A program made the position numbers and the translations under genes. This document shows positions 5,516 through 56,064 of a stretch of 64,000 bases of DNA, piece by piece; the stretch's first letter is position 1, and every line of letters begins with the position of its first letter. This DNA is from a bacterium (GTDB taxonomy: Bacteria; Patescibacteriota; Minisyncoccia; UBA6257; MFKM01). The notes under the pieces are model-generated. The model was given only the letters and a program-made list of their open reading frames with translations, was not told the origin of the DNA and made no database searches. The stretch lies in assembly GCA_030693325.1 (NCBI GenBank), contig JAUYAV010000019.1, forward strand, positions 65,324 to 129,323, read 5' to 3'.

Positions 5516-7931
5516 ATATTGTAATCATTCCCACTAATTTGTCGCCTGGATCAAGGTTCATGATTTTTACGCCTTGAGTGGCCCGGCCTACCAAGCGAAT
5601 ACTGCTAATTTCGGTTTTCAAGATTTGGCCTTTCGCGGAAATCGCCAAAATTTCTTCGGCTTCGTCAATGATTTGTCCGGCGATTATCGGCCCGGTTTTG
5701 GAAGTGATTTTGGCGGTTTTAATTCCCGAACCGGAACGGCTCTGAATTCGGTATTGTTTTATGCTGGTTTGTTTGGCGAACCCGTTAGCCATCACCACTA
5801 ACAATCGCTGGTCTTTCGCTTCTTTTTTAATTATATCAATTCCGCTGACAAAATCGCCTTTTTTAAGTCTGATGGCTTTTACTCCGCTGGCGGTTCGGCC
5901 CATAGCTCGGACTTGTTTTTCGGGAAAACGGATAGCCTGCCCCAAAGCCGTGGCTAAAATAATTTCATCATGGCCGGAGGAAAGTTTAACCCATTTCAAA
6001 AGATCGTCTTTTTTGAGGTTAATGGCGATTAAGCCGTTGCGGCGGATGTTGGCGAAATCATCCGGCGTTGATTTTTTAATAACCCCGTTTTTGGTGGCCA
6101 TTACCAGAAACGCCGAGGCGTGATTTTTAGGATAACTGATTATGGCGCTGATTTTTTCTTCGGTCGAGAGGTCTAAGAAATTATAAATTGATTTGCCTTT
6201 GGATGTTCGGCTTGCTTGGGGAATTTCATAGGCCTTGGTTTGAAAAACCCGGCCGCGGTCGGTGAAAAACAAAACGCTGTCGTGGCTTTTGGCCGTCAGA
6301 ATTTGAGTGATAAAATCTTCTTCTTTCAGATCAAAGCCGATAAGTCCTTTGCCGCCGCGTTTCTGGCTCCGGAAACTGTCTGGCGCCAATCGTTTAATGT
6401 AACTGGCTTGGCTTAAAGTGATAATATTGTCTTCCTGGGGGATGAGATCTTCCTCGCGATATTCTTTGACTTCGGTGCTGATGATTTTGCTCCGCCGCGG
6501 ATTGTCAAAATTATTTTTTAATTCGGTTAATTCGGTTTTGATGATTTTCAAAATTTCTTTGGGATTTTTCAAAATGAATTGGAGGTCGGCAATCAGTTTC
6601 TTTTTTTCTTTTAATTCGTCTTCAAGTTTTTGGCGTTCCAGGGCGGCCAGGGTTTGAAGCCGCATTTCTAAAATAGCGTTGGCTTGAATGTCGCTGAATT
6701 TGAATTTTTTAACCAGATTTTCGCGGGCGGTTTCGCGGTCTTTTGATTTTTTAATAGTAGCGATGACTTCGTCTATTGAATCCAGGGCTTTTACTAAGCC
6801 GGTCAGAATATGCGCCCGTTCCTCGGCTTTTTTTAAATCAAACTCGGTTCTTTTTTTAATGACCTCCTGGCGGTATTTTATCCAGGCGCCAAGAATGTCT
6901 TTCAGGGACAACACTCGCGGTTGAATACCGTCAACCAAAGCCAGCATATTCAAATAAAACTCTTTTTGAAGGTCGGTGTGTTTGTAAAGAAAATTAAGAA
7001 TTTTTTGGGGATTAACGTCGCTTTTCAATTCAATGACGATTCTCAGCCCTTCTCTGTCGCTTTCATCTCTAATATCTTTAATGCCTTCAATTTTTTTATC
7101 CTGGACAAGGTCGGCGATTTTAATGATGAGCTCTGACTTATTCACCTGATAAGGAATCTCGGTGATTATAATGTCAAACTGTTTTTCTTTGCGTTCCTGA
7201 ATATCAGCCCTTGCCTGCATAGTGACTGAGCCCTTGCCCAAAGCATAGGTTTCGGCGATTGATTTGTTATAAATATAGCCGCCGGTCGGGAAATCAGGAC
7301 CAGGCACGATTTTTACCAAATCTTTTATTTCGGCCTGGGGATTATCAATTAAATATTTGGTCGCCTCAATTATTTCTCCTAAATTGTGGGGCGGGATATT
7401 AGTCATCATCCCGACAGCGATGCCGTAGGTTCCGTTGACCAAAAGATTCGGGAATTTGGCGGGCAGGACTTTCGGCTCCAGCCGGGTATTGTCATAATTC
7501 GGCTGCCAATCAACAGTTTCTTTCTCAATATCAACTAATAATTCTTCGGCAATTTTTGAAAGCTTAGCTTCGGTGTACCGGTAAGCCGCCGCGGAATCTC
7601 CGTCAATAGAACCGAAGTTTCCCTGTCCGTTAATTAACGGGTATCTTTGGGAAAAATCTTGGGCCATCCGTACTAAGGCATCGTAAACCGCAATATCGCC
7701 GTGAGGGTGATAACGGCCCAAAACCGAACCGATGATCGTGGCTGATTTCCGGAATTTGGCATCGCTTCTCAGGCCGTCTTCAAGCATGGCGTAGAGAATC
7801 CGGCGATGAACCGGTTTTAATCCGTCTCTGACGTCAGGCAAGGCCCGCGAAATAATAACTGAAAGGGCGTAATCCAAATAACATTCCTGAAGTTCGCTGG
7901 TAATTTCTTTTTTTTCTATTTTTTCCGGCAT
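5514..7931 (-). CDS. gyrA: DNA gyrase subunit A
   Basis: [21 protein letters not shown] and [18 protein letters not shown]. Confidence 0.95.
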
Positions 7932-50902: not shown

Positions 50903-50949
50903 TTTTGTTTGTCTTGAGTAAATCTCATAATTTTTATATATTTAACGAT

Positions 50950-53900
50950 ATGCTGAAAGACATTAAGAATCTGAAAAATTCCGAGCTTGAAGAAAAAGTT
51001 CTTAAATTCTGGCAGGAAAATAAAATTTTTGAGAAATCCCTGGAGAGACGAGCGAAGAAACCGCTTTTTTCTTTTTATGACGGACCGCCTTTCGCCAACG
51101 GTTTGCCTCACTACGGCCATATTTTAGCCACCGTTATTAAAGACGCTACGACCCGTTTTTGGACAATGGCCGGCTTCAGGGTTGAACGCCGGGTGGGCTG
51201 GGATACTCACGGTTTGCCCGTGGAAACCGAGATTGAAAAACAATTGAATCTCAAGGGCAAAAAAGACATTGAAAAATTCGGCATTGAAAAATTTAACGCC
51301 GCCTGCCGCGATTCGGTTTTCCGTTATAAAAAAGAATGGGAAAAAACTCTTGAAAGAGTCGGCCGCTGGGCTGATTATGGGAACGCTTACGCCACTTTGG
51401 ACAATTCCTACATGGAATCGGTCTGGTGGGTTTTTAAAAAACTTTGGGAACAAAAACTGATTTATAAAGATTTCCGGGTAACGCCGTATTGTTTCCGCTG
51501 TGGCACGCCTTTATCCAATTTTGAAGTAAATCAGGGCTACCGGGAAGCCGAAGACCCATCGGTTTACGTGAAATTTAAAATAAAAAATCCGAAATCTTCA
51601 AAAAACGAATATTTGCTGGTTTGGACGACTACCCCCTGGACATTGCCTGCCAATGCCGCCATTGCCGTTAATCCGGATTTAATTTATACGAAATATTCGG
51701 TGAATGGAGATTATCTTTTTTCTTATAGCGCGCCTCCGGCTTTAACCGGCGTTAAAATTGAAGCTGTTGAAAAAATTTCCGGCAAAAAACTTGCAGGTTT
51801 GGAATACGAGCCGCTTTATAAACTTGCAGGTTCGGAATTTAAAGTTAATGATTGTTATCGGGTTTTGCCGGCTGATTTTATTTCAACCGAAGAGGGGACG
51901 GGGTTGGTTCATATCGCGCCGGCTTTCGGAGAGGAAGACATGAAAGTGGGCAAAAAAAATAATCTTCCGGTTCTAATAACCGTGGATGAAGAGGGGAAAA
52001 TGAAAACGCCGGGTTATTCTTGGAACGGTTTGTTCGTCAAAGAAGCCGATAAAGTCATTTTTGAAGATTTAGAAAAAAGAAATCTTTTGTACAAAAAAGA
52101 AACCGTTCTTCACCAGTATCCTTTTTGCTGGCGCTGTGATTCGCCGTTGCTTTATTATCCTTTAAGCACCTGGTATATCGCCGTTGCCAAAATCAAAAAT
52201 AAATTAATAAAAAATAACAAGAAAATTCATTGGGTGCCGGAGCATATTAAAGAAGGAAGGTTCGGCAAGTGGCTGGCTGAAGCGCGGGATTGGGCTTTTT
52301 CCCGGAATCGTTTCTGGGGCGCGGCGTTGCCGATTTGGCAGTGCCAGTCCTGTCAGCAAAATATCGCCATAGGTTCCCTGAAAGAGTTGGCGCAATCGGC
52401 GGTTAATGCGAATAATCATTATTTTATTTTGCGGCATGGTCAGGCCGAATCAAACCATCATAAAATTATTTCTTGCTGGCCGGAAAAAATAACAGTCAAA
52501 CTTACTGACAAAGGAAGGGAACAAATTGAAAAAATCGCCCAAGTTTTAAACAAAAAAAATATTCAACTTATTTTTTCTTCGGACCTTTTGCGCACCAAAG
52601 AAACCGCCGGGATTGTTTCTAAAAAAATTAATATTCCGGTTAATTTTGACGAACGTTTAAGAGAATATAATGTCGGGGAATTCAACGGGCAACCGATAGA
52701 AAAATTCAACGATTTTATGGGCGAGAAAATAAATTTATTTTCTAAAACTCCCGAAGGAGGAGAGAATTTAAGCGATATTAGGAAACGGATGATGGATTCT
52801 ATTTTGGAATTGGAAAAAAAATATAAAAATAAAAATATTTTGATTGTCAGCCACGGCGATCCGCTCTGGATTTTGGAAGGAGCCAGCCAGGGGCTCAACG
52901 AGAAAGAGCTTGTAAAATCAATGGAAAATTACATTAAAGTAGGCGAACTGCGGGAAATCAAACTTTCCAATTTACCTTATGACGGGGAAGGGAAATTAGA
53001 TTTACATCGCCCTTATATAGACAAAATAGAATTGCGGTGTCCCGAATGTGAAGGCCGGGCCAAGCGTGTTTCGGAGGTTTTTGACTGCTGGTTTGAATCC
53101 GGCTCCATGCCTTACGGCCAATGGCATTATCCTTTTGAGAATAAAAATTTGGTGGAAAAAACTTTTCCCGCTGATTTCATCGCTGAAGGCCTGGACCAAA
53201 CCCGGGGCTGGTTTTACACTCTTCATGTTTTAGCCGGCGCTTTATTTAATAAACCGGCTTTTAAAAACGTAGTTGTTAACGGACTTGTTTTAGACGCCCG
53301 TGGAATGAAATTAAGCAAAAAACTGCGCAACTACGCCGAACCGGAAATAATTTTTGATAAATACGGGGCTGACGCTTTGCGTTATTTTCTTCTGAGCTCC
53401 ACTCAAATCGGCGAGGATTATCAGTTTTCCGAAAAAGGCGTGGCAGAAATTTTCCGGAAGGTGATTGATAAATTCAGGAATGTTTTCAATTTTTATCAGC
53501 TATACGCGGGGAATATCCGCATAAATCCCTGCCTGCCTGCCTGCAGAAGCGTTTCTTTATTGGATAAATGGATTTTAGCCCGGCTCAACGAAGTCATCTT
53601 AAAAATGACCGAAAAAATGGAGGCCTATGAACTTACCGATGCCACCAGAATTCTTATGGAATTTATTGACGACCTTTCAAATTGGTTTGTCAGGCGTTCC
53701 CGGAAAAGATTTTCGGGTGAAGATTCCAAACAGGCCTCGGCCGTGCTTGGTTATATAATTTTGGAAACCAGCAAATTAATGGCGCCTTTCGCCCCGTTTA
53801 TTAGCGAGGCGATTCATATGACTTTGACGCAAAATTCGGTTCATCTTGAAGATTGGCCCAAAGCTGATAAAAATCTGATTGATAAGAATTTGTTGGAATC

Positions 53901-54054
53901 AATGGTTGAAGTGCGGCGGTTGGCCAGTTTGGCTTTAGCCAAGAGATTGGAAGCCGTAATAAAAGTGAGACAGCCGCTGGCGTCATTAAAACTCAAAAAC
54001 TCAAAAACTCAAAAACAGCAAAGGACTATTAGATATTTTGAAAGACGAAATTAA
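50950..54054 (+). CDS. ileS: Isoleucyl-tRNA synthetase, main part. It contains an inserted histidine-phosphatase (PGAM-like) domain at about 52400-53000 and is frameshifted at its 3' end. A TTG at 50905 is an alternative start.
   Basis: PFANGLPHYGH (HIGH motif), KLSKKL (KMSKS motif), Zn knuckles; inserted RHG...SHGD block. Confidence 0.9.
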   Translation: MLKDIKNLKNSELEEKVLKFWQENKIFEKSLERRAKKPLFSFYDGPPFANGLPHYGHILATVIKDATTRFWTMAGFRVERRVGWDTHGLPVETEIEKQLNLKGKKDIEKFGIEKFNAACRDSVFRYKKEWEKTLERVGRWADYGNAYATLDNSYMESVWWVFKKLWEQKLIYKDFRVTPYCFRCGTPLSNFEVNQGYREAEDPSVYVKFKIKNPKSSKNEYLLVWTTTPWTLPANAAIAVNPDLIYTKYSVNGDYLFSYSAPPALTGVKIEAVEKISGKKLAGLEYEPLYKLAGSEFKVNDCYRVLPADFISTEEGTGLVHIAPAFGEEDMKVGKKNNLPVLITVDEEGKMKTPGYSWNGLFVKEADKVIFEDLEKRNLLYKKETVLHQYPFCWRCDSPLLYYPLSTWYIAVAKIKNKLIKNNKKIHWVPEHIKEGRFGKWLAEARDWAFSRNRFWGAALPIWQCQSCQQNIAIGSLKELAQSAVNANNHYFILRHGQAESNHHKIISCWPEKITVKLTDKGREQIEKIAQVLNKKNIQLIFSSDLLRTKETAGIVSKKINIPVNFDERLREYNVGEFNGQPIEKFNDFMGEKINLFSKTPEGGENLSDIRKRMMDSILELEKKYKNKNILIVSHGDPLWILEGASQGLNEKELVKSMENYIKVGELREIKLSNLPYDGEGKLDLHRPYIDKIELRCPECEGRAKRVSEVFDCWFESGSMPYGQWHYPFENKNLVEKTFPADFIAEGLDQTRGWFYTLHVLAGALFNKPAFKNVVVNGLVLDARGMKLSKKLRNYAEPEIIFDKYGADALRYFLLSSTQIGEDYQFSEKGVAEIFRKVIDKFRNVFNFYQLYAGNIRINPCLPACRSVSLLDKWILARLNEVILKMTEKMEAYELTDATRILMEFIDDLSNWFVRRSRKRFSGEDSKQASAVLGYIILETSKLMAPFAPFISEAIHMTLTQNSVHLEDWPKADKNLIDKNLLESMVEVRRLASLALAKRLEAVIKVRQPLASLKLKNSKTQKQQRTIRYFERRN

Positions 54055-54388
54055 CGTCAAAGAAATTATTTTTGATTCCGAAATAAAAGAGGAATTGGAA
54101 TTGGACACCAAAATAACGCCAGAGTTGAAAGCGGAAGGTGTTTTAAGGGATTTGACCCGGCTGGTTCAGGGTTTGCGCCAGGACGCCGGCTATCAGCCGA
54201 AGGACAAAATTATTTTGATGATTGAAGCCCCGGCGGAACTAAAAGAGATTTTGGAAAAGAATAATGTTTTTCTCAAAAAAGAAATCAACGCCCATGATAT
54301 TGAGCTAAGACATTCGGACAAGTTTGACGCGGAATCAAGCACTAAAATGAACGACTGGCAGATTTGGCTGGGAGTAAGAAAAATTTAA
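54038..54388 (+). CDS. ileS: IleRS C-terminal domain in the +1 frame (continuation of ileS after a frameshift at the AAAACTC x3 repeat)
   Basis: ELDTKITPELKAEGVLRDLTRLVQGLRQDAGYQPKDKI is the conserved IleRS C-terminal region. Confidence 0.75.
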   Translation: MKDEINVKEIIFDSEIKEELELDTKITPELKAEGVLRDLTRLVQGLRQDAGYQPKDKIILMIEAPAELKEILEKNNVFLKKEINAHDIELRHSDKFDAESSTKMNDWQIWLGVRKI

Positions 54389-54454: not shown

Positions 54455-54892
54455 TTATCCCTGGTAATTTAAAAATTTCCATCTTTTGCCGCCTTTGGTT
54501 GGAAAAGGGAAATTAAGCCAATAATCTAAGATTGTTTTTTGCGGCGGTAATCCTTTTTTGTGTTTTTCTATTTTTTCGCTTTTGCTTTTTTTGGCGTAAT
54601 AACGATTGCTTTGATAGCCGGATTGTTTTTCAATGCTCTTTTTAAGAGCGCTAATAGTGCTTGGAGAAATCCATAAAATTTCTTCTATTTCTTTATAGGA
54701 TTTTCCGGCTTTTATCATCGCCAGAGCCGTTAATCTTTTTATAATTAATTTTTTTTCGTTGGCGCTTAGTAAATTATCTAAAAAATTCTTTAATTGTTTT
54801 TCAGACCTCGCTCTTTCGGCATTTTCCAAAAATTTGGACCAAAGGAAATCCTCCCATTCTTTTCTTGATTTAAATTCAGAGATTTTTTTCAT
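54455..54892 (-). CDS. TrpR/YerC-YecD-like HTH DNA-binding protein (paralog 2)
   Basis: LLSANEKKLIIKRLTALAMIKAGKSYKEIEEILWISPSTIS. Confidence 0.6.
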   Translation of the reverse strand: MKKISEFKSRKEWEDFLWSKFLENAERARSEKQLKNFLDNLLSANEKKLIIKRLTALAMIKAGKSYKEIEEILWISPSTISALKKSIEKQSGYQSNRYYAKKSKSEKIEKHKKGLPPQKTILDYWLNFPFPTKGGKRWKFLNYQG

Positions 54893-55074: not shown

Positions 55075-56064
55075 TTATTGGCGATACATTGCCCTTTTAA
55101 CGAGTTGCAGAGTTTCTTGGGCGTTAGCTCGGGCGATTTTGGCGCCTTCTTCCAGTATAGATGAGATGAACGAATTATTTTGAGACATCTCGCTTTTTTT
55201 AGCCTGAAATTCGGCCAAGAAATTATTAGTGATACGAATAAAAAGTTGCTTGAATTGTCCCATCACCGGTTTGCCTTTTTTGTGTTCCTTAATTAGAGAA
55301 TCTATTTCTTCTTTTTCTTGATCATTTTTACATAAACTTTTAGCAACAAGGATGTGACTTTCCAGTTTTTCGTTCATTGCTCCTTCGAATGCGGTTTCCG
55401 CGCCTTTAATTTTTCTGGCAACGGTTTTTGCGTCATCCGTAAGAAAAATGGCTCCTTCCGGAGAGCTTTTGCTCATTTTCCCTTCTCCTTTTAAAGAAAG
55501 GATTTTAAGCGCGTCTATTTGAAGGGGTTGTGGAAGCGGGAAAATTTTTCCATATTTTTTATTAAACCTTCTAGCGAGTTCTCGGCTCACTTCTAAGTGC
55601 GCGAGCTGGTCTTTTCCGACTGGAATTTTTTCTGCTCGCTGAAGCAATATGTCGGCAGTCATCATTACCGGATAAAGAAGGAGAAATGTATTCGCTGTTT
55701 CCGGTCGCACGTTGGCTTTTAATTTTTCTTTGAGGGTGGGGACTCTTAAAAGTTCAGACACGTTTATTAAACGAGATAGAAACATAGTCAAAACAGATAC
55801 CTCGTTTTCAATATCAGATTGTAAAAAGATTTTAGTTTTATCGGGATTTATTCCGAACGCGATGTAATCAGCAACAACTTCATTGACAAATTTTTTTGCA
55901 TTGGCCGGTTCATTGTCGGTTATGGCGTGAAGGTCGGCGACAAAAACCAAAGGGGATCGGCCTTTGTTTTGGAGTTCAACAATAGGTTTAATCGCTCCAA
56001 GATAATTGGCGATCGTCAAATCGCCAGTTGGGCGAATGCCTGTCAAAATTTCAATTTTAGTCAT
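55075..56064 (-). CDS. trpS: Tryptophanyl-tRNA synthetase
   Basis: HIGH-type N-terminus and KMSKS. Confidence 0.95.
   Translation of the reverse strand: MTKIEILTGIRPTGDLTIANYLGAIKPIVELQNKGRSPLVFVADLHAITDNEPANAKKFVNEVVADYIAFGINPDKTKIFLQSDIENEVSVLTMFLSRLINVSELLRVPTLKEKLKANVRPETANTFLLLYPVMMTADILLQRAEKIPVGKDQLAHLEVSRELARRFNKKYGKIFPLPQPLQIDALKILSLKGEGKMSKSSPEGAIFLTDDAKTVARKIKGAETAFEGAMNEKLESHILVAKSLCKNDQEKEEIDSLIKEHKKGKPVMGQFKQLFIRITNNFLAEFQAKKSEMSQNNSFISSILEEGAKIARANAQETLQLVKRAMYRQ

Follow-up and report, generated by a model that had tools for sequence, protein, structure and literature searches.

Few enzymes have been studied as thoroughly as the aminoacyl-tRNA synthetases, whose accessory domains mostly point to additional functions, such as editing, tRNA capture, or signaling. 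According to a domain-insertion survey, synthetases are preferred hosts of inserted domains (PMC13114784), and in the isoleucyl-tRNA synthetase (IleRS) of Thermus, the CP3 region bears a zinc-binding motif (PMC7191050). Here we describe an ileS gene from a 64,000-nucleotide stretch of a Patescibacteriota contig (JAUYAV010000019.1; the window), in which a second domain, predicted to be a histidine phosphatase, sits inside CP3. The account that we favor, with moderate confidence, is that this gene encodes a two-enzyme polypeptide: an IleRS carrying, in a surface loop of CP3, a branch-1 histidine phosphatase of ~185 amino acids that is its obligate functional partner.

We located the insert by alignment to Thermus thermophilus IleRS (PDB structure 1ILE). 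Residues 85-282 of the query segment were unmatched, giving an insert of ~198 amino acids, and its flanks aligned with 1ILE residues 397-480 and 488-595. The insert takes the place of a loop of ~7 residues (Thermus 481-487) between the two CxxC pairs of CP3. This bears out the initial annotation, made from the DNA letters alone, which had proposed an in-frame insert of about 200 amino acids; the motifs that it quoted from either side (CQSC, RCPEC, and DCWFESGSMPY) all lie in frame (Table 1). The junctions read ...AQSAVNANN and ...GKLDLHRP, and both are free of stop codons and frameshifts. The insert (window 52390-53010) has a GC content of 0.364 and a third-position GC content (GC3) of 0.367, compared with 0.426 and ~0.45 in the rest of ileS, a low-GC composition although the insert is old in this lineage. 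A tblastn search of the window found no further copy of the phosphatase.

The insert matched the Pfam family His_Phos_1 (PF00300) over residues 507-664 of the open reading frame (ORF) (nucleotides 52423-52896), with an E value of 2.9e-35 and 122.1 bits against a cutoff of 21.7, a score far above chance. A PDB sequence search returned PhoE/YhfR (1EBB and 1H2E; E value of 2e-13), PspA, glucosyl-3-phosphoglycerate phosphatase, dPGMs, TIGAR, and CobC. The AlphaFold model of the insert, based on 112 sequences, has a histidine-phosphatase fold, with a predicted local distance difference test (pLDDT) score of 92.9 and a predicted template modeling (pTM) score of 0.89. Foldseek placed this model among alpha/beta phosphoglycerate mutase-like folds at E values of 1e-13 to 2e-15, template modeling (TM) scores of 0.75-0.78, and 21-24% identity; its neighbors were Rv2419c GpgP, PspA, PhoE, a riboflavin-pathway histidine phosphatase, TIGAR, and CobC.

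At the subfamily level, the insert missed every curated NCBIfam cutoff and could be assigned to none of these families. The best match, dPGM_arch, scored 101.7 against a cutoff of 225, and the second best, CobC alpha-ribazole phosphatase, scored 87.1 against 162.9. We likewise rejected the second dPGM model, TIGR01258 (36.7 against 81.7), GpmB (62.6 against 261), the phosphoserine phosphatase PspA (76.4 against 350), and SixA (33.3 against 74.5). The insert is phosphatase-like, and the earlier description of the domain as PGAM-like holds for the superfamily and the fold.

To count catalytic residues, we built a hidden Markov model from 113 free-standing homologues and used it to extract 384 homologous domains. 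The Arg of RHG was retained in 381 of these, the nucleophile His in 380, and the Arg of LRT in 382; the acid position was Glu or Asp in 383 (99.7%), and the second His was present in all 384. Each of these five catalytic-core residues is at least 99% retained at every insertion site, despite a mean column identity of 43%. Such conservation would be expected of a working enzyme rather than a scaffold. The two motifs first noticed in the translation, LRHGQAESN and VSHGDPL, are present in frame within IleRS, and the residue counts show that the RHG and second His that they contain are conserved. Taken together, the insert is a whole histidine phosphatase whose catalytic set is intact, and it is apparently active.

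The majority of matches to the insert were free-standing Patescibacteria proteins of ~188 amino acids, ~50% identical to it. Their genes (HP) are flanked by argS and ileS, which they overlap or from which only a few bases separate them, and the cluster order in sister lineages is argS-HP-ileS-small protein-recO. We sorted 80 loci from a species-representative genome collection by tblastn and found the domain inside ileS in 57 and as a free gene in 23. The free gene was followed by ileS on the same strand in 23 of 23 loci, within 90 nucleotides in 20, and the remaining three had one extra gene between the two. Upstream of the free gene, argS was present in all 21 loci with upstream sequence (within 125 nucleotides in 19); for the inserted form, 39 of the 57 loci had argS upstream in the same orientation (within 163 nucleotides in 28). 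Unfused IleRS proteins have the ordinary short CP3 loop. As judged from sequence, the insert is an orthologue of the free-standing phosphatase encoded directly upstream of ileS in sister Patescibacteria.

Some individual loci depart from this arrangement. In Staskawiczbacteria, the free phosphatase gene is separated from ileS by a gene whose product has a CYTH (triphosphate tunnel) domain (L003 6570-7160 and L040 5561-6148). At locus L041, an ORF between the same two genes (5573-6556) opens with a copy of the IleRS N terminus, MSIDFPKIEKKILKFWQENKI, and continues for ~300 amino acids without a Pfam match; perhaps an element inserted at the 5' end of ileS and duplicated its target. At L090 1139-8888, the gene for P0232, an IleRS without the insert, is followed by genes for glycerate kinase, pyruvate phosphate dikinase (PPDK), and enolase, with overlapping stops and starts. 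PPDK uses up AMP and pyrophosphate, by-products of aminoacylation. We rejected a link to glycolysis, as this order was found at one phosphatase-free locus only and did not recur among the 80 loci.

The insertion is common among relatives, as a survey of IleRS orthologs showed. Both PF00133 and PF00300 were present in 119 of the best 120 IleRS matches to the whole protein, at 48-79% identity and mostly with lengths of ~1120-1200 amino acids. The named sources of the best matches were Jorgensen-, Colwell-, Wolfe-, and Nealsonbacteria, Paceibacterota, and Parcubacteria. With a 335-amino-acid segment across the junctions as the query, HMMER matched at least 150 clusters in a full scan of 1.84 billion representatives (clustering at 50% identity), and most of the matched proteins span the segment in one continuous stretch. 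A separate query gave at least 117 further matches with both domains, nearly all outside the first list. Searching with the insert and short flanks, we found partial IleRS fragments from other assemblies that share both junctions at 40-75% identity. Thus, many Patescibacteria share the architecture, and the window genome is no special case.

Many of these proteins are labeled at NCBI only as "class I tRNA ligase family protein." In full-text literature searches, we came across no account of a histidine phosphatase within or beside IleRS, and looking up terms in a synthetase database paper and in the domain-insertion survey gave no mention of one. A synthetase with this inserted catalytic domain is, on these searches, unreported; its sequences are publicly available, with domain labels assigned automatically.

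Taking fixed IleRS motifs as landmarks, we assigned the phosphatase domains of ~265 long proteins to insertion sites. Site A, in CP3 between IGSxxEL and DLHRPYID, is the commonest, with 247 proteins and 7 incomplete ones that fit. Site A' adjoins it, between DLHK..D and RxPEVLDCWFESG. Site B, after HYPF and before FPADFIAEGxDQTRGWF, is the sole site in P0362, P0372, and P0387, two of which are labeled Peregrinibacteria by NCBI. Site C falls within the anticodon-binding domain, between WNAYxFFxTYAxID and LDxWIxSEL, and is the sole site in P0374. Five IleRS proteins have two copies, at A and B in P0369, at A and C in P0261 and P0352, and at A and A' in P0340 and P0354. Going by their amino acid context, A, A', B, and C are without doubt different loops; IleRS has captured the phosphatase at several independent sites, four or more in number.

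In a rough neighbor-joining tree with biased sampling, all 114 free copies and 26 site-A inserts stood apart from the other 235 site-A inserts; because of this bias, we drew no direction of transfer between free gene and insert. The inserted phosphatases are of two types by the strand that precedes RHG, "NNxYFILRHG" in the window protein and the free genes and "RFTKVTxxRHG" in P0261, P0340, P0354, and P0374, which hints at more than one source lineage. P0374 itself is a protein of 1273 amino acids encoded at L091 5001-8822 (GCA_021733565.1, 268-kb contig) among uvrB, uvrC, and mgtC genes, and through it the architecture may extend beyond Patescibacteria.

One clade has an altered phosphatase nucleophile. 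At L066 7089-10118, an IleRS-like paralogue stands in tandem after a normal ileS and still bears the phosphatase insert. It appears to be without the CP1 editing domain, its HIGH region reads NINH, and a search of it for DQTRGWF and KMSKS found neither. Its phosphatase has RPG instead of RHG, and the only two relatives found (P0393 and P0344; three clusters in all) have RSS and RAG at this position. The nucleophile His is thus replaced by Pro, Ser, or Ala in the sole clade found with decayed synthetase motifs (three sequences). The paralogue looks like a double pseudo-enzyme, and in this small sample the joint decay fits a phosphatase whose catalysis would matter only beside an active synthetase.

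Apart from the insert, the host is a normal-looking type-2 IleRS, with HIGH and KLSKK motifs and with CP1 editing, zinc-binding CP3, anticodon-binding, and C-terminal domains. Pfam matched the ORF to tRNA-synt_1 (PF00133; the class I synthetase catalytic domain) with an E value of 1.6e-128 and to Anticodon_1, and the nearest solved structures in a PDB sequence search were 1ILE, 9W01, 8C8U, and 7D5C. Of the two signatures named at first, the HIGH motif is indeed present as HYGH, while the second is not a literal KMSKS, the loop reading KLSKK. In CP3, CQSC and CPEC of the window protein correspond in the alignment to CQAC and CAC of Thermus, consistent with zinc binding; C465 of CQSC is invariant among 96 homologues, and C468 is kept in at least 90%. 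The assignment to type 2 is based on the HIGH motif, the KMSKS-type loop, the anticodon-binding domain, and the C-terminal DUF5915 domain, which a frameshift has detached. The mechanically called ORF (50905..54054, forward strand; 1049 amino acids) has a TTG start at 50905. NCBI protein P0121 is 100% identical over the 1034 amino acids that follow from the ATG at 50950, which makes this ATG the probable true start; the exact window IleRS is thus also present in NCBI as a protein from a metagenome-assembled genome.

An AlphaFold model of the 1034-amino-acid protein, based on 96 homologues, had a pLDDT of 89.9 and a pTM of 0.86. Both linkers scored pLDDT 94-97 in this full-length model versus 61-72 in the model of the insert alone, and this confidence suggests that the phosphatase domain would be docked on the IleRS body rather than floppy.

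The main ORF ends at 54054 because a surplus A in an A5 run within the ACTCAAAA x3 tract shifts the frame. The C-terminal domain is part of the same polypeptide in 94 of 95 aligned homologues. The frame break is most likely a homopolymer error; a genuinely split IleRS is the alternative, and a less likely one.

Table 1. Features of the window ileS gene and its phosphatase insert
Feature	Position	Strand	Basis or remark
ileS main reading frame	50950..54054	+	1034 amino acids from ATG at 50950; type-2 IleRS with inserted phosphatase
HIGH signature, reads HYGH	51109..51120	+	Motif in frame
First CxxC (CQSC) of CP3 zinc knuckle	52342..52353	+	Aligns with Thermus CQAC 461-464
N-terminal linker AQSAVNANN, CP3 to phosphatase	52390..52416	+	pLDDT 72 alone, 94-97 in full-length model
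Histidine-phosphatase (branch 1) domain	52408..52959	+	Pfam match 52423-52896
RHG motif: Arg and predicted nucleophile His	52432..52440	+	Invariant in homologue alignment; 99% of 384 domains
Second phosphate-binding Arg (LLRTKE), predicted	52591..52593	+	Homologue alignment and 384 domains
Catalytic acid Glu (RLRE), predicted	52663..52665	+	Aligns with Glu of DERLRE in PhoE
Second catalytic His (VSHGD), predicted	52852..52854	+	100% of 384 domains
C-terminal linker KLSNLPYDGEGKLDL, back into CP3 (DLHRPYID)	52960..53004	+	1ILE alignment and models
Second CxxC (CPEC) of CP3 zinc knuckle	53038..53049	+	C697 and C700 invariant
DCWFESGSMPY, start of second half of Rossmann fold	53083..53115	+	Alignment to 1ILE
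KMSKS-type loop, here KLSKK	53308..53322	+	Motif in frame
ACTCAAAA x3, site of frame break	53991..54015	+	One surplus A in A5 run
Detached IleRS C-terminal domain (DUF5915)	54038..54388	+	+1 frame; separate ORF of 116 amino acids; Pfam E value 4.4e-20

On the reading that we favor, IleRS would depend on the phosphatase as an obligate partner, produced in the same quantity and kept at its side, and the phosphatase would hydrolyze a phosphomonoester whose turnover matters during IleRS work. The inserted form probably arose from the neighbor gene, for example if HP and the 5' part of ileS were duplicated in tandem and an in-frame deletion then carried HP into whichever permissive loop the breakpoint hit. 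Tandem duplication does take place at this locus, as the second ileS copy in L066 shows. We know of no aminoacylation step that needs a phosphomonoesterase. As for the substrate, our preferred but weak guess is one of nucleotide type, either a 2'- or 3'-phosphorylated nucleotide or a phosphorylated tRNA(Ile) 3' end. A further step, which we consider rather unlikely, would be a role for the phosphatase within isoleucine charging itself, freeing tRNA(Ile), a nucleotide, or an intermediate of a blocking or corrupting phosphate.

Several observations weigh against an obligate partnership. The score of the insert below every curated subfamily threshold leaves its substrate without a pointer, and gene neighbors offered no pathway clue: the 142 ORFs downstream of ileS, once clustered, comprised only recO, a small basic protein without a Pfam match, and a DUF7619/DUF11 protein. 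With insertion sites as far apart as CP3 and the anticodon-binding domain, the phosphatase is not expected to hold a single fixed position with respect to the active site. P0232, the closest IleRS without the insert, has no phosphatase gene immediately upstream either, so the partnership is not universal. Finally, conserved adjacency and fusion can come from co-expression alone.

This last point leads to the main rival, in which a housekeeping phosphatase of the argS-ileS operon (PhoE-, PspA-, or small-dPGM-like) became trapped in ileS in streamlined genomes for co-expression only, with no biochemical link to aminoacylation. We regard it as unlikely but as a possibility to be taken seriously. 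It gains from the best family and structure matches, which are small-molecule phosphatases and the small archaeal dPGM model, from the lack of geometric equivalence among the insertion sites, and from P0232, a close relative that manages with neither an insert nor an adjacent copy. It does not readily account for at least four separate insertion sites and double copies within one host protein, for a free gene that is linked to ileS at every locus where it was found (23/23), for the loss of the nucleophile in exactly the synthetase-dead paralogue, or for the confident linkers of the full-length model.

Alternatively, the domain might repair tRNA ends, stripping a 3'- or 2'-phosphate or a pyrophosphate from the CCA end of tRNA(Ile) as a defense against toxins. 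RelA/SpoT-homologue toxins pyrophosphorylate the tRNA CCA end. The support is indirect: the domain is tethered to a tRNA-binding enzyme, has strictly conserved catalytic residues, and is inserted in regions that face the tRNA, one in the catalytic body and the other in the anticodon-binding domain. However, no histidine phosphatase is, to our knowledge, active on RNA ends, small molecules are the substrates of all the nearest structures, nothing explains why only IleRS would need repair, and no toxin or repair genes lie nearby. We consider this role improbable.

A still poorer candidate is a catalytically irrelevant module, a dimerization or tRNA-binding surface for which the phosphatase fold is merely a scaffold. 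Histidine phosphatases commonly dimerize, some IleRS proteins have two copies, and the domain is predicted to be docked, yet such a module would hardly keep five catalytic residues at 99% or more across 384 domains that are otherwise very divergent (mean column identity of 43%), and we rate it as very improbable. Lastly, an artefact can be dismissed as next to impossible despite the lower GC and GC3 of the insert: an assembly chimera is ruled out because hundreds of sequences of 48-79% identity from independent assemblies (NCBI, JGI, ENA, and Logan) have these very junctions, and an intein or mobile element because Pfam found no Hint, endonuclease, or transposase domain, the junctions have neither splice-junction residues nor stops or frameshifts, and the insert is a full phosphatase fold, in agreement with the first reading of it as a stable domain insertion.

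In much of the candidate phyla radiation, then, a second, apparently active enzyme of an unrelated superfamily is tied to this synthetase. Occurrence as a neighbor gene, as an insert at at least four places, and in double copies is a classic mark of functional partnership. Were the phosphatase also part of charging, a phosphate-directed quality-control or repair step, undescribed before, would be built into the synthetase, acquired independently at several loops and supplied as a separate subunit in sister lineages. The identity of the substrate could uncover a new requirement of translation, or of nucleotide or tRNA upkeep, in reduced and mostly uncultured bacteria.

Beyond ileS, the window encodes a Trp_repressor-family protein on the reverse strand at 54455-54892 (Pfam E value of 1.8e-10). 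The adjoining reverse-strand gene at 55075-56064 resembles, by eye, a tryptophanyl-tRNA synthetase and has KMSKS.

Among described enzymes, the insert compares best with the small branch-1 phosphatases PhoE/YhfR of B. stearothermophilus (1EBB and 1H2E), PspA of H. thermophilus (4IJ5/4IJ6), and mycobacterial Rv2419c (4PZ9 and 6S2Q). It shares with them the fold (TM scores of 0.75-0.78), the size (~190-210 amino acids), and the set of RHG His, two Arg, Glu, and second His, and by analogy its chemistry would be phosphomonoester hydrolysis via a phospho-histidine intermediate. Unlike them, it is found within or beside an aminoacyl-tRNA synthetase, falls below the family cutoffs, and is only 21-24% identical in sequence. 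The host, in turn, resembles the IleRS of Thermus (1ILE/1JZQ) and IleRS2 of Priestia megaterium (8C8U) in its CxxC pairs, DxWFxSG, DQTRGWF, and KMSKS-type loop, but has an enzyme domain of ~198 amino acids where Thermus has a loop of ~7 residues (481-487). None of the solved IleRS structures matched in the PDB search aligned across the insert.

Two further systems offer partial parallels. In the bifunctional RNase H/acid phosphatase of the Rv2228c type (NF005567), a CobC/PhoE-like phosphatase is fused to a nucleic-acid enzyme, and this model is the third-best NCBIfam match of the insert, at 87 bits far under the cutoff of 326. That fusion is end to end and has another partner, whereas the IleRS phosphatase is an internal insertion. 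The CP1 editing domain of class Ia synthetases is likewise a hydrolytic domain looped out of the synthetase body. CP1, however, is ancient, universal in Ile-, Leu-, and ValRS, and hydrolyzes aminoacyl esters, whereas the phosphatase insert, a member of an unrelated superfamily, is lineage restricted and predicted to act on phosphate esters.

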